Assembly (NCBI GenBank): GCA_963821435.1
Contig: CAWGDR010000011.1
Coordinates: 185,277 to 249,276 of the forward strand
DNA from: an uncultured Acidobacteriota bacterium
Lineage (GTDB): Bacteria; Acidobacteriota; Thermoanaerobaculia; UBA5066
Direction of reading: 5' to 3'
Length of the DNA stretch: 64,000 nucleotides
The position numbers were made by a program, and so were the translations under genes. This document shows positions 2,815 through 6,351 of this stretch, piece by piece. The notes below the pieces were generated by a model. It did not search any database. It was not told where the DNA came from and worked only from the letters and a program-made list of their open reading frames with translations. Position 1 is the first letter of the stretch. Every line of letters begins with the position of its first letter.

Positions 2815-3809
2815 ATGACCGAGATCGCCCGGCTGAAGAGGGAGATCCTCCGGGAGGTGGTCCGCGACAACGCGGACCTCGTGGAGGGGCGCCGCCGAGA
2901 GCCGCTCCGCCCCGGGCAGCGGCGCCGACGGACGCTCGTCTTCGCCGTCGGATTCGTCGTCGCTCCGCTCGCCCTGTTCCTCTCCCTGAACGCCCTGACG
3001 ACCGGGAAGGGGGAGCGGACCGACGTCCTCGTCGTCGGGAATCCGGCGGCGCCGGCCGCGGCACCTGCCGCCGCGTTCGTCCCCGCGCCGAAGGGGATGG
3101 AGCCGTCGCTCTTCCGGCTCGACGTGAAGACCGTGGTCCTGGACCCGGGCCACGGCGGCCCCGACCCGGGCGCGCACGCCGCGGGGGGGCTGTCGGAGAA
3201 GGAGATCACGCTCGACATCGCCCGGCGGGTCCGGGCGCTGCTCGCCGCGGCCCGGCTCTCCGTCGAGATGACGAGGGAAGGCGACGCGGGCCTCTCGCTC
3301 CGCGAGCGGGCTCTCTTCGCGAACGCACGGAAGGGAGACCTTTTCGTTTCGATCCACGTGAACTCGATGCCGACGGCCGACGCGGTCGGCGTCGAGACGT
3401 TCTTCCTCGGCGAGGCGGCGGACGCGCGCTCCGAGCAGCTCGCCGGCGACGAGAACCGCGATTCCGGCTACGCGCTCCACGATTTCAAGAGGCTGCTCGA
3501 GGGGGTCTACGCGGGGGTCCGGCAGGGCGAGTCGAAGACGCTGGCCTCGGCGGTGCAGGGCCGTCTCGTCGCGGCGCTCCGGAAGCGGAATCCCGGGCTC
3601 GAGAACCGGGGCGTCAAGAGCGCTCCGTTCGCCGTCCTCGTCGGGACCGAGATGCCGGGATCCTCGCCGAGGTGTCGTGCCTCTCGGCGCCCGACGAGGT
3701 CCGGCGGCTCGGCGACCCGGTCTACCGGCAGACCATTGCGCGCGCGCTGGCCGACGGCGTCCTCGCGTACGCGGAGTCCCGCAATCACCCGGCTGGCGGA
3801 AGGAGTTGA
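2815..3809 (+). CDS. N-acetylmuramoyl-L-alanine amidase (AmiC/Amidase_3 family), membrane-anchored (one frameshift near 3659)
   Basis: N-terminal TM segment LVFAVGFVVAPLALFLSL. Amidase_3 motifs: VVLDPGHGGPDPGA, DLFVSIHVNS and RGVKSAPFAVL. The C-terminus continues in frame 0 as PGILAEVSCLSAPDEVRRL...LAYAESRNHPAGGRS with a stop at 3807-3809. Confidence 0.8.
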
Positions 3810-3814
3810 GCAGC

Positions 3815-4834
3815 ATGGCGGCAGCGAAGGACGTTCTCTGGGTCGGGGTCGATCTCGGCACCTCGCGAAGCTCGATCTCGGCGTCCAACGGGAAACGCCA
3901 CGTCATCGAGAGCTTCGTCGGCTGGCCCGTCGACATGGTGGCGCGCAAGGTCGTGAAAAAGCCGGTCCTCTTCGGGCACGAGGCGCTGGAGAACCGGACG
4001 ATGCTCGAGCTTCACCGGCCGCTCGAGCGGGGCCTGATCAAGGAAGGGTCGGCACGCGACGAGGAGGCGGTCCGCGAGCTTCTGAACCACCTCTTCGCGC
4101 TCGCCGAGCCGGCGGCGGGGCAGAAGGTCCATGCCGTCATCGGCGTCCCGGCCGAAGCGCTCCGCGTCTCCCGGCAAAACCTCCGGAACGCGGTCAAGGG
4201 GCTCGCCGACTCCCTGATGATCGTCTCGGAGCCCTTCGCCGTCGCCTACGGGATGGACGCGCTCCTCCACACGATGGTGATCGACATCGGCGCGGGGACC
4301 ACCGACTTCTGCGTCATGATGGGGCGCTTCCCGTCCGAGGACGACCAGCGGACGCTCACGAACGCGGGGGACTCCGTGGACGAGCAGCTACAGGGCCTCA
4401 TCAAGGCGCGGCACCCGTCGGCGCGCTTCTCGATCTACATGGTCCGCGAGTGGAAGGAGAAGTCGAGCTTCGTCGGGGACCCGCCCGCGCCGGTCGTCGT
4501 GAGGTTGACGGTGAACGGGAAGCGGACCGAGGTCGACATCACCGCCGAGATGAAGCGGGCGTGCGAGAGCCTCCTCCCCCCGATCACCGAGACGATGCTC
4601 GACCTCCTCTCGCGCGTCGAGCCCGAGTTCCAGGAGAAGGTGCAGAAGAACGTCATTCTCGCCGGAGGCGGCTCGCAGATCCCCGGCCTCGCCGCGGCGC
4701 TCGAGAAGGCGCTCGGCGAGTTCGGCGGCGGCCGCGTCCGGGCGGTCGAGGACTTCGTCTTCGCCGGCTCGAACGGAAGCCTCGCGATTGCGACCGACGC
4801 GCCCGAGGGCGACTGGGAGCCGCTCTCCGCATGA
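3815..4834 (+). CDS. actin-like ATPase, MamK-like (ASKHA superfamily) filament protein
   Basis: ATG at 3815 follows GGAAGGAG. Actin-fold motifs present: VGVDLGTSRSSI, VIGVPAEA, VSEPFAVAYGMD, IDIGAGTTDFC and ILAGGGSQIPGL. The EDQRTLTNAGDSVDEQLQ block resembles MamK more than MreB, FtsA or ParM (from memory of MamK sequences). Confidence 0.7.
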   Translation: MAAAKDVLWVGVDLGTSRSSISASNGKRHVIESFVGWPVDMVARKVVKKPVLFGHEALENRTMLELHRPLERGLIKEGSARDEEAVRELLNHLFALAEPAAGQKVHAVIGVPAEALRVSRQNLRNAVKGLADSLMIVSEPFAVAYGMDALLHTMVIDIGAGTTDFCVMMGRFPSEDDQRTLTNAGDSVDEQLQGLIKARHPSARFSIYMVREWKEKSSFVGDPPAPVVVRLTVNGKRTEVDITAEMKRACESLLPPITETMLDLLSRVEPEFQEKVQKNVILAGGGSQIPGLAAALEKALGEFGGGRVRAVEDFVFAGSNGSLAIATDAPEGDWEPLSA

Positions 4835-6351
4835 GCCCGCGCGATTCGGGCGCCGGGGACCGCGGCGGCGCGCGCCGGATGCTCCCGTCGGTATCCGAGG
4901 TGGCGACCGAGCTGGGGCGGCAGGTGGCGGCCGACCCGGCCGTCCTCTACAAGGTGGCGCGTCAGGTCGTCGCCGAGGAGCTGGCCAAGGTGAAGCAGGG
5001 CCTCGAGTCGGCGCCGCTCGATACGCTGGTGAAACGCGCGCGGCGGGTTCTCGCCGCGAGCGAGCCGGCGTCCGCTCCGAAGCAGCCCGACCTCTTCGCC
5101 ACGGGCGGCACTCTCTCCGCGGACGAGAAGGCCGGGCGCGACCTCTCGGCCCCGTTCGAGGTCGTGGCGCCCCCCCCCGCGCCGCCCGAGATTCCCGCGC
5201 CGCCGGCCCGCTCCCGCTCCGAAGAGCGCGGCCTCGTCGAGGTGCCGAAGACTCCCGGCCGCAGGTTCGACCGCGTCAGCGCCGAGCTGCCGGCCGAGGC
5301 CGTCAGCGGTCCCCCCCTCGCGCCGCCGGAACCGATGCCGGCCGAGCCGGCGCCCGAACCCGCGCCCGCTCCGGCCCCGGAGCCCCCCCCGCCGCCGCCG
5401 CCGCCGACGACGACGACGCCGTCGCCCGAGTCGTACCTCGTGAAGCCGGCGTCGCCGAGCCTCATCCGGCGGATCGCCGGCGACGCTCCGGCGGAGCCCG
5501 TTCCGGTGCCGCCGCCGCTCGTCGGTGGCGCGGGTCCGGAGACGCCGGCACTGGAGAGTCCCCCGGCGGAGTCGGGCGCTCCCGAGGGGCACATTCCCTC
5601 CGAGGACGAGGAGACCCTGTCCGCCGAGTTCAAGTCCTTCTCGACGGAGACTCTCGAAAGGCTCCACGTGACTCCGCCGCCGCTGGCCGCCGAGGTGCCG
5701 CTCGCGGCGCCCGCTGACGACCGGAGCGACGCCACCCGCCCGGTGGCGCCGGCGCCGCCCGGCCGGAGCCGGAGCTGGCGCGTCGCGATCCTGGCATTCG
5801 CGTTCGTGGCAGCGGTGGTCGCCGGAGGCGTCTGGTGGCTGATCTCGCAGGGCGGACGCGTCGTGAAGACGGAAGCGGTCAGGGTCGAGGCCCCGCCGAA
5901 GCCCGCGCCGCCGGAGGCCGCACCCGCCCCGGTTCCGACGCCGGCGCCGGCCGCGCCCGCGGCCGCCGCCGCGCCCAAGGCGCCGCCCGCGGCGAAAGGC
6001 CCCCCCGCGAAGGCCGCGCCGAAACCGGCCCCGCCGCCCGCTCCCGCGGCGGCCCCGGGGCGCGCCGCGGTGATGGTGACGAAGGACTGGACCGGGAAGC
6101 CGCCGGTCTTCGTCCTCCACTTCTCATCGCACAAGGACCGCCCGTCGGCGGAGAAGGAGGCCGCCCGCCTCGCCGCCGTGCTCTTCAAGCCGGGGCACGC
6201 CGTCGAAGTCGACCTCGCGGACCGGGGAATCTGGTACCGGGTCGTCATCGGGGAGTTCGGCCGGGTCGAGGAGGCCAGGGCCTTCCGCGATGACCTCGCC
6301 GCGAAGAACACGCCCGGCATGGGTTTCATTTTCGAGATGCGGGGGAAGTGA
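4831..6351 (+). CDS. bitopic proline/alanine-rich protein with C-terminal SPOR (septal peptidoglycan-binding) domain
   Basis: ATG overlaps the upstream stop (ATGA at 4831-4834). About 305 aa are predicted cytoplasmic, including the tract APEPAPAPAPEPPPPPPPPTTTT. A single TM (WRVAILAFAFVAAVVAGGVWWLI) is followed by a PA-rich linker. The C-terminus is SPOR-like (PVFVLHFSSHKDRPSAEKEAARL...GIWYRVVIGEFGRVEEARAF). Confidence 0.7.
   Translation: MSPRDSGAGDRGGARRMLPSVSEVATELGRQVAADPAVLYKVARQVVAEELAKVKQGLESAPLDTLVKRARRVLAASEPASAPKQPDLFATGGTLSADEKAGRDLSAPFEVVAPPPAPPEIPAPPARSRSEERGLVEVPKTPGRRFDRVSAELPAEAVSGPPLAPPEPMPAEPAPEPAPAPAPEPPPPPPPPTTTTPSPESYLVKPASPSLIRRIAGDAPAEPVPVPPPLVGGAGPETPALESPPAESGAPEGHIPSEDEETLSAEFKSFSTETLERLHVTPPPLAAEVPLAAPADDRSDATRPVAPAPPGRSRSWRVAILAFAFVAAVVAGGVWWLISQGGRVVKTEAVRVEAPPKPAPPEAAPAPVPTPAPAAPAAAAAPKAPPAAKGPPAKAAPKPAPPPAPAAAPGRAAVMVTKDWTGKPPVFVLHFSSHKDRPSAEKEAARLAAVLFKPGHAVEVDLADRGIWYRVVIGEFGRVEEARAFRDDLAAKNTPGMGFIFEMRGK

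Follow-up and report, generated by a model that had tools for sequence, protein, structure and literature searches.

What does an actin of the MamK type do in a genome region that holds no magnetosome genes, and which protein is its partner? The question is raised by three genes that lie head to tail on the + strand (2815–6351) of a 64-kb stretch of contig CAWGDR010000011.1 from an uncultured Acidobacteriota bacterium; the whole stretch is referred to below as the window. In order, the genes encode an amidase of the Amidase_3 family, an actin-like ATPase and a bitopic protein with a C-terminal SPOR domain. The original prediction, made from the sequence alone, saw in them a possible three-part module in which a MamK-like filament is tethered to septal peptidoglycan through the SPOR protein as a MamJ-like adaptor, with the amidase supplying the denuded glycan. 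Comparison with related genomes shows that the amidase and the actin are the invariant pair and that the SPOR gene is an addition of one subclade. We consider it moderately probable that the core of this chromosomal operon is a cytoplasmic MamK-superfamily actin and a type-II bitopic amidase of the regulated class that work together.

The actin-like protein belongs to the MamK superfamily

The actin gene (3815–4834, + strand) encodes a protein of 339 residues, one fewer than originally counted, and is preceded by an AAGGAG Shine–Dalgarno sequence read from the DNA (3800–3805, 9 nt before the ATG). The NCBIfam MamK model (NF040964) matches residues 8–337 along profile positions 1–330 of 335 with a score of 380.3 bits (E = 7e-114), just under the curated cutoff of 400, so that formal membership of the family is not reached. 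Other families score far lower. The BeeR model (NF053558) gives 225 bits against a cutoff of 530, the MreB models TIGR00904 and NF010539 give 48.5 bits against 365.75 and 65 against 293 (46–65 bits against cutoffs of 293–515 across all MreB models), and the FtsA model matches with an E value of 7e-4. A sequence search of the PDB returned the same ranking, with MamK at E = 1.7e-82, the BeeR filament (8r2n, a 386-residue chain) at 1e-49 and MreB at 5e-10. The protein is 41% identical to MamK of M. magneticum AMB-1.

The model of the actin produced by AlphaFold2 (AF2) has a mean predicted local distance difference test (pLDDT) value of 93.7, and its first strand starts at residue 7. The top Foldseek match is the MamK filament (5ljv_A), with TM-scores of 0.92/0.96 and an r.m.s.d. 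of 1.5 Å, followed by BeeR (0.88) and MreB (∼0.8), consistent with a MamK-type fold. The motifs GVDLGTS, SEPF, VIDIGAGTTD and LAGGGSQIPGL align with the nucleotide-binding and ATPase motifs of MamK. The equivalents of MamK E143 and D161, together with the phosphate-binding and adenosine motifs, are invariant or nearly so, and judged by these residues the protein looks catalytically competent.

A neighbour-joining tree with bootstraps was built from the 50%-identity cluster representatives of the superfamily (197 at E ≤ 1e-30). The window actin groups with P0121, P0124 and P0125 in a clade with 81% support and lies outside the MamK core clade (95% support). A Pfam scan of the locus and of ten large open reading frames (ORFs) elsewhere in the 64-kb window found no mam genes, the ten ORFs matching RND efflux, Ser/Thr kinase, T2SSE ATPase and similar families. 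What borders the actin in more than 80 loci is an amidase gene, in some of them together with a SPOR gene. There is thus neither a magnetosome gene cluster nor a grouping with magnetotactic MamK that would mark the protein as MamK sensu stricto. The original prediction had called the actin MamK-like rather than MreB-, FtsA- or ParM-like, had placed it outside any magnetosome context and had called for its phylogenetic placement; profile scores (380 against at most 65 bits for MreB), PDB matches and fold bear it out. We conclude that the protein falls within the MamK superfamily and is neither an MreB, an FtsA or a ParM nor the magnetosome MamK sensu stricto.

The nearest homologues (74–94% identity) come from metagenome-assembled genomes (MAGs) of Thermoanaerobaculia and other Acidobacteriota, and most public records annotate them as 'rod shape-determining protein MreB'. 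Compared with L003, the nearest relative, the window gene has 23 nucleotide and three amino-acid differences, with a ratio of nonsynonymous to synonymous divergence (dN/dS) of 0.047 at dS 0.084; the actin is under very strong purifying selection. As a separate observation, a large group of MamK-like proteins with 41–44% identity to the window actin (P0129, P0131, P0133, P0134, P0137, P0140, P0148 and P0150) carry N-terminal extensions of 190–900 residues in which Pfam finds no domain.

The actin is paired with an amidase across genomes

With the actin as query, 80 species-level genome loci were retrieved from Acidobacteriota and Methylomirabilota. An Amidase_3 gene lies directly upstream of the actin gene in all 79 assessable genomes, the 80th locus having no upstream DNA. 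The gap between the two genes ranges from about 1 to 190 nt across the 79 loci, and the flanking genes differ. Because the arrangement recurs in 79 of 79 genomes with differing flanks, it is more than chance. The amidase also precedes the actin in distant representatives of the superfamily, namely P0121 (65% actin identity), P0123 (53%) and P0170 (39%).

The P0123 cluster includes an NCBI entry named 'MamK family actin-like protein [Nitrospira sp.]', which is a MAG protein. In this Nitrospira-labelled lineage the two genes form a self-contained operon, amidase then actin, with opposite-strand genes on either side and no SPOR gene. An example is L171 (4800–7050), whose actin (P0366) belongs to the 90%-identity cluster shared with the Nitrospira sp. 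MAG protein. The amidase of the L171 type is longer (417–482 residues), with an extended N-terminal region. No upstream amidase was seen for the P0127 and P0128 lineages, and the P0126 contig is too short for assessment (45–49% identity for P0126–P0128). The amidase link is therefore not common to all MamK-like clades. As a separate observation, the P0127 lineage (49% identity) has a gene for a 287-residue coiled-coil protein, not an amidase, in front of its actin (L087, 32–2050). It seems that the dedicated partner differs from one MamK-like clade to another.

The SPOR gene has a narrower distribution. It follows the actin in 50 of 69 assessable genomes, and 36 of these 50 loci keep the ATGA overlap between the two genes. 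It is absent from the remaining 19, which comprise all 12 loci labelled Methylomirabilota/Rokubacteria and seven divergent Acidobacteriota loci, and the SPOR protein therefore cannot be essential to the core function. The invariant unit is the pair of amidase and actin, which recurs under three or more phylum-level labels; the SPOR gene is an addition of a Thermoanaerobaculia/Holophagales subclade that includes the window. What survives of the proposed triad is thus a conserved, tightly coupled unit; the triad itself is not that unit, since the SPOR gene can be missing and the amidase never is. At the Methylomirabilota/Rokubacteria loci, a conserved gene of ∼265 codons follows the actin (at ∼7050–8000 in each of L023, L027, L033, L035, L041, L048 and L056); its product is NUDIX-like, as judged by eye only (FLGGYYAFPGGKVD).

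The amidase exchanges a periplasmic targeting domain for a membrane anchor and a tail

The amidase gene (2815–3809, + strand) starts at the ATG at 2815 and is conceptually 331 codons long; its frame is broken by a 1-nt deletion near 3658 (see below), after which the C-terminal 49 codons reach the TGA at 3807–3809. Pfam assigns Amidase_3 alone (PF01520, E = 1e-36, on 2815–3657), and the C-terminal 49 residues (3660–3806) correspond to the final part of the AmiA and CwlD models. The protein consists, in order, of a tail of ∼39 residues, a cluster of arginines, a transmembrane (TM) helix, a linker of ∼40 residues and a catalytic domain. The tail (residues 1–39; 2815–2931) bears the motif RLKr..LR.aVrENvD.I.G. 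The single TM helix (residues 40–62; 2932–3000) follows directly after an RRRR sequence and gives a Kyte–Doolittle 19-mer maximum of 2.43 at residue 40. There is no evident cleavable signal peptide, and by the positive-inside rule the tail is predicted to face the cytoplasm.

The tail motif has the consensus DRLKRrmLRdAVRENvDvIeG, which is common to all clades and is kept in 68 actin-linked amidases, including those of Methylomirabilota and of the divergent clades. These 68 proteins are 327–354 residues long and so leave no room for an AMIN domain; none is present in the window amidase. Pfam, searched at E values up to 10, returned nothing meaningful for the tail. A motif that by eye seemed common to the amidase tail and the N-terminal domain of the SPOR protein ('R.VV.E....V..G') was rejected (hhalign P = 0.19, probability 0.3%).

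Alignments place the catalytic domain (3127–3806), predicted to be periplasmic, with the AmiA/B/C type. It aligns as one stretch with AmiA (8c2o), AmiB (3ne8) and AmiC (4bin) through residues ∼205–240, which correspond to the insert carrying the regulatory helix; against the CwlV- and LytH-type amidases, which are insert-less, the alignment splits in two. The insert places the enzyme in the regulated AmiA/B/C class, autoinhibition itself being a prediction. The residues expected to bind zinc and to act in catalysis (H113, E128, H181 and E286) are invariant in the amidase alignment (A3). The original label 'AmiC' claims too much: AMIN is absent, and the NCBIfam AmiC model (NF038267) scores 62.8 bits against a cutoff of 700.

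The link was also approached from the amidase side by scanning metagenome contigs with the amidase alignment, which gave 80 loci, 64 of them with 700 nt or more of sequence after the amidase. An actin gene follows immediately in five of the 64, and no other locus has any actin match. All five actin-linked amidases, whose N-termini were read directly, have both the tail motif and the TM helix; none of the 59 non-linked amidases matches at query residue 43 or earlier. The ten non-linked N-termini that were read are of the signal-peptide, AMIN or LysM type, and Pfam, run on 53 of the 59, found AMIN in 35 and an AMIN-like domain in 15. Within the loci examined, the tail-bearing, AMIN-less amidase goes exclusively with the actin. 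In this family, a TM anchor and a conserved cytoplasmic peptide of ∼25 residues have taken over from the periplasmic domain, AMIN, that serves for targeting, and this exchange goes hand in hand with a dedicated cytoplasmic actin. Because the tail and TM helix take the place of AMIN, the amidase is the most likely direct partner of the actin; it had been cast before as a periplasmic supplier of SPOR substrate, a role that leaves the conserved tail and TM helix out of account.

The SPOR protein resembles FtsN more than MamJ

The third gene (4831–6351, + strand) encodes 506 residues, and its ATG at 4831 shares the ATGA at 4831–4834 with the actin stop codon (TGA, 4832–4834). The amidase stop is separated from the actin ATG at 3815 by 5 nt (gcagc). 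The gene order, both junctions and the 506-residue product are as first described. The protein has a single TM helix (residues 317–339; 5779–5847), with a Kyte–Doolittle maximum of 2.39 at residue 320, followed by a periplasmic linker rich in Pro and Ala by composition (residues 340–412; 5848–6066) and the SPOR domain (residues 413–506; 6067–6348). The latter is recognized by Pfam (PF05036, E = 4e-6, 27.5 bits against a cutoff of 21) and is well conserved in relatives. Searches with the full-length protein found 86 homologues, all of which contain PF05036; the N-terminal 89 residues used as query gave four, owing to a word-index limit.

The cytoplasmic part (residues 1–316) is 20% Pro and 16% Ala, with 44 Asp and Glu against 32 Lys and Arg. 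It is not uniform. Residues 15–77 (4873–5061) form a conserved domain, with 12 invariant columns in an alignment of 53 sequences, for which AF2 predicts three helices (21–31, 36–55 and 63–77) at pLDDT averages of 91–96 for ten-residue blocks over residues 21–70. Pfam found no match to this domain even at E values up to 10, and the fold search gave no significant PDB match (best E = 0.9); a likeness to the N-terminal domain of SelA (TM-score 0.55, E = 2.4) was likewise not significant. Residues 78–315 (5062–5775) are a variable acidic linker with 25% Pro and a net charge of −16. Among relatives, the entire cytoplasmic part is between about 140 and 390 residues long. In alignment A1 (columns 239–276), most relatives have motifs of the form DDPFQ..A..ADL.WEKE..IQP.DAPFRSAILP within this linker; by eye they are weak or missing in the window protein, and they may be short linear interaction motifs.

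The description of a Pro-rich bitopic protein with one TM helix and a periplasmic SPOR domain therefore stands, with a folded N-terminal domain to be added to its cytoplasmic part. The analogy with MamJ does not extend beyond composition: the protein is acidic and Pro-rich, but it contains a TM helix, a SPOR domain and a conserved three-helix domain that is predicted to fold, and no tandem repeats, only low-complexity short ones. MamJ itself has neither a TM helix nor a SPOR domain. The FtsN model TIGR02223 reaches 17 bits against a cutoff of 107.65 (E = 0.003), in the linker and SPOR region only, and does not identify the protein as FtsN; by analogy of architecture, FtsN is nevertheless the closer counterpart of the two.

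Proposed mechanism and alternative explanations

We propose, with middling confidence, that the amidase is positioned or controlled from within the cytoplasm by the actin filament, the SPOR protein being an FtsN-like accessory. Lying against the inner side of the membrane, a polymer of the actin would bind the tail of the amidase, both filament formation and binding being predictions, and this contact would fix where, and possibly when, the enzyme cuts periplasmic peptidoglycan, at the septum or at another defined place. In the Thermoanaerobaculia/Holophagales subclade, the translationally coupled SPOR protein would join the same cytoplasmic assembly through its N-terminal domain and would tie it to the denuded glycan made by the amidase, giving a self-reinforcing loop of localization. 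More tentatively, and with somewhat less than even confidence, we suggest that this is an undescribed cytoskeletal system in which a septal-type amidase is targeted, and perhaps also gated, by a dedicated MamK-superfamily filament that acts through the enzyme's own TM anchor and tail. Held equally loosely is the suggestion that the system spans Acidobacteriota, Methylomirabilota and at least some Nitrospira-related lineages, replacing the periplasmic AMIN targeting of well-studied bacteria and adding SPOR feedback in one subclade.

Several observations weigh against this proposal. The SPOR protein, to which the feedback loop is assigned, is missing from the 19 genomes noted above. The amidase frame in the window is broken. 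Glu274 of the actin occupies the position of MamK A278 and is Glu or Asp throughout the amidase-linked clade, and the change A278D stops MamK polymerizing (title of PDB entry 5ljw); the force of this point is tempered by variation of the equivalent column across the MamK superfamily. Lastly, the deep nodes of the neighbour-joining tree are not resolved, the wider amidase-linked grouping having 16% bootstrap support and the inner clade (81%) alone being resolved.

The alternative that survives best, although we think it unlikely, is that the actin acts as an ATP-driven switch whose nucleotide or assembly state releases the autoinhibitory helix of the amidase through the tail and TM helix, in the manner in which FtsEX–EnvC controls AmiA and AmiB. 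The amidase does have the insert for the regulatory helix that is found in the autoinhibited AmiA/B/C class, its connection to the cytoplasm is one TM helix with a conserved peptide, the two-gene unit works without a SPOR protein in many lineages, and the Glu at the A278 position leaves room for an assembly unlike that of MamK. A single TM helix and a linker of ∼40 residues would, however, transmit a conformational change poorly. The AF2 model of the actin fits the filament conformation of MamK best, and its sequence is conserved to the very high degree that is usual in proteins that form polymers. Switching and positioning are not mutually exclusive.

That the SPOR protein is a MamJ-like adaptor between filament and septal peptidoglycan, with the amidase only supplying denuded glycan, we regard as improbable. 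Although the ATGA coupling to the actin persists in 36 of 50 SPOR-bearing loci, the conserved N-terminal domain could bind actin and the cytoplasmic region is acidic and Pro-rich, it is the SPOR gene that is absent from 19 of 69 genomes and from the Nitrospira-type operon and the amidase that is never absent, the amidase carries a conserved cytoplasmic tail of its own, and the features of MamJ discussed above (tandem repeats, no TM helix, no SPOR domain) are not those of this protein.

The name MreB under which homologues are deposited, the very strong conservation of the actin and the fact that neither MreB nor a second, paralogous actin was found within the 64-kb window could together suggest a housekeeping equivalent of the rod-shape MreB, next to which the amidase is a mere co-expressed cell-wall gene. 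This is quite improbable given the gulf between MreB and MamK in profile scores and PDB E values, the absence of mreC, mreD, rodA and pbp2 beside the actin in any locus examined and the exclusive association of the tail-bearing, AMIN-less amidase with this actin.

The broken amidase frame calls for separate treatment. The original prediction placed the amidase gene correctly upstream of the actin and overlooked that its frame breaks after GTEMPG, at ∼3658, and continues in another frame as ILAEVSCLS. At the same place L003 is intact (EMPGILAEV), reading gagatgcccggcatcctc where the window reads gagatgccgggatcctc; the Gly codon ggc at 3655–3660 has become gg, with ccggga in the window against cccggca in L003, a single base lost from a stretch rich in c and g. 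Both pieces remain close to intact relatives (91% amino-acid identity to L003). Relative to L003, the window also has an ABC-transporter gene (953–2429) split over four or more frame pieces, and there is one break in a large gene on the minus strand (∼8740). Since these breaks are spread over unrelated genes, an assembly error of the indel-prone, long-read pattern is the likelier cause, and the amidase is probably not a true pseudogene. Despite the frameshift near 3658 and the further breaks nearby, it is highly improbable that the locus is decaying or an artefact that has lost its function in this genome, the lost base and the scattered breaks being what long-read assembly errors would leave, the amidase pieces being well conserved and the actin and SPOR genes being intact and under purifying selection.

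Relation to known systems

The closest characterized relative of the actin is MamK (5LJV, 5JYG), which it resembles in fold (TM-scores 0.92–0.96, r.m.s.d. 1.5 Å), sequence (41% identity), ATPase residues and length, with no N- or C-terminal extensions, and in its near-threshold match to the NCBIfam model. It differs from MamK in lying outside a magnetosome cluster and in a separate clade, in having Glu at the A278 position and in being paired with a membrane-anchored amidase, where MamK is paired with MamJ or MamY. BeeR of Verrucomicrobiota (PDB 8R2N) is second best in both profile and fold, but is only ∼31% identical (225 bits against the 530-bit cutoff), and the window actin lacks an N-terminal extension. 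BeeR has a disordered N-terminal extension of 30–50 residues and forms three-stranded tubes, and its cellular function is unknown (PMC11929497).

In the FtsA–FtsN–AmiA/B/C loop of E. coli there is likewise an actin-fold protein at the inner face of the membrane (a predicted location for the window protein), a bitopic SPOR protein that runs from a cytoplasmic N-terminus over a long linker to a SPOR domain at the C-terminus, and a set of regulated amidases making the denuded glycans that are the SPOR ligand. The window system departs from this loop in that its actin is of the MamK type, the cytoplasmic part of its SPOR protein has 316 residues with a domain predicted to fold instead of a short peptide, its amidase is membrane-anchored and AMIN-less, and its three genes share one operon. 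AmiB and AmiC with FtsEX–EnvC share with the window amidase the regulatory-helix insert and a functional tie between a cytoplasmic ATPase and a periplasmic amidase, which is predicted here. Unlike them, the window amidase has no AMIN domain, and its targeting or activation would run through its own TM helix and tail and not through EnvC or NlpD.

In the MreB–RodZ and MreBH–LytE systems, a cytoplasmic actin homologue sets where periplasmic or extracellular peptidoglycan enzymes act, and a bitopic partner binds the actin homologue through a cytoplasmic domain. Here, in contrast, the actin belongs to another family, the hydrolase itself carries the tail and no elongasome genes lie nearby. The present system would be of a kind already known, in which a bacterial actin is linked to an enzyme of the cell wall. 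A full-text search, outside which subscription-only literature lies, found no description of an amidase-linked MamK-like actin, in keeping with the earlier supposition that the system is undescribed. The only characterized non-magnetotactic relative of MamK that it turned up is BeeR; a preprint on Thiomargarita reports a mamK homologue beside a flotillin gene.

If correct, our proposal would give MamK-type actins a second, widespread role beyond magnetosome positioning, tied to cell-wall hydrolysis, and would provide a frame of reference for orphan actins of the BeeR kind. It would also be a case of inside-out amidase targeting by the enzyme's own tail rather than by AMIN and LytM activators. 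A central question of bacterial division is what keeps amidases, which are potentially lethal, confined to particular places. The carriers belong to phyla that are abundant in soil and sediment, have hardly any cultured members and are little known in their cell biology, and a consequence for annotation is that most members are now mislabelled as 'rod shape-determining protein MreB'. With two or three genes, the system is small enough for heterologous expression and in vitro reconstitution.

Divergence from the nearest relative and other features of the window

The top species-genome match to the window is an Acidobacteriota MAG with an actin that is 99% identical, while its DNA overall is only ∼88% identical. 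Nucleotide identity between the window and L003 was compared by segment. The flanks are 85–88% identical and the amidase 89.8%, whereas the actin reaches 97.7% and the first ∼220 nt of the SPOR gene, encoding the N-terminal domain, 94.4%; identity then falls to 76% in the cytoplasmic linker and stands at 80% from the TM helix to the C-terminus. The low synonymous divergence of the piece formed by the actin and the SPOR N-terminal domain (3815–5061 in the window, 6001–7232 in L003) may reflect recent recombination or a strong constraint on codons or mRNA.

The window has a GC content of 73–74%, and a stop-free ORF of 1178 codons that spans 2815–6351 is an artefact of this high GC content (74%). 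Directly after the SPOR gene lies a gene for an NAD-dependent epimerase/dehydratase (6362–7276, − strand), which is absent at the matching place in L003, where there are ∼350 nt compared with ∼940 nt in the window. Two long ORFs, 19769–21829 (+ strand, 687 residues) and 46574–49873 (+ strand, 1100 residues), show a strong coding-type bias in GC content at third codon positions and have no Pfam match at an E value of 1e-5. An 843-residue protein (38820–41351, − strand) combines HEAT repeats with T2SSE, the type II/IV secretion ATPase domain, an uncommon fusion.

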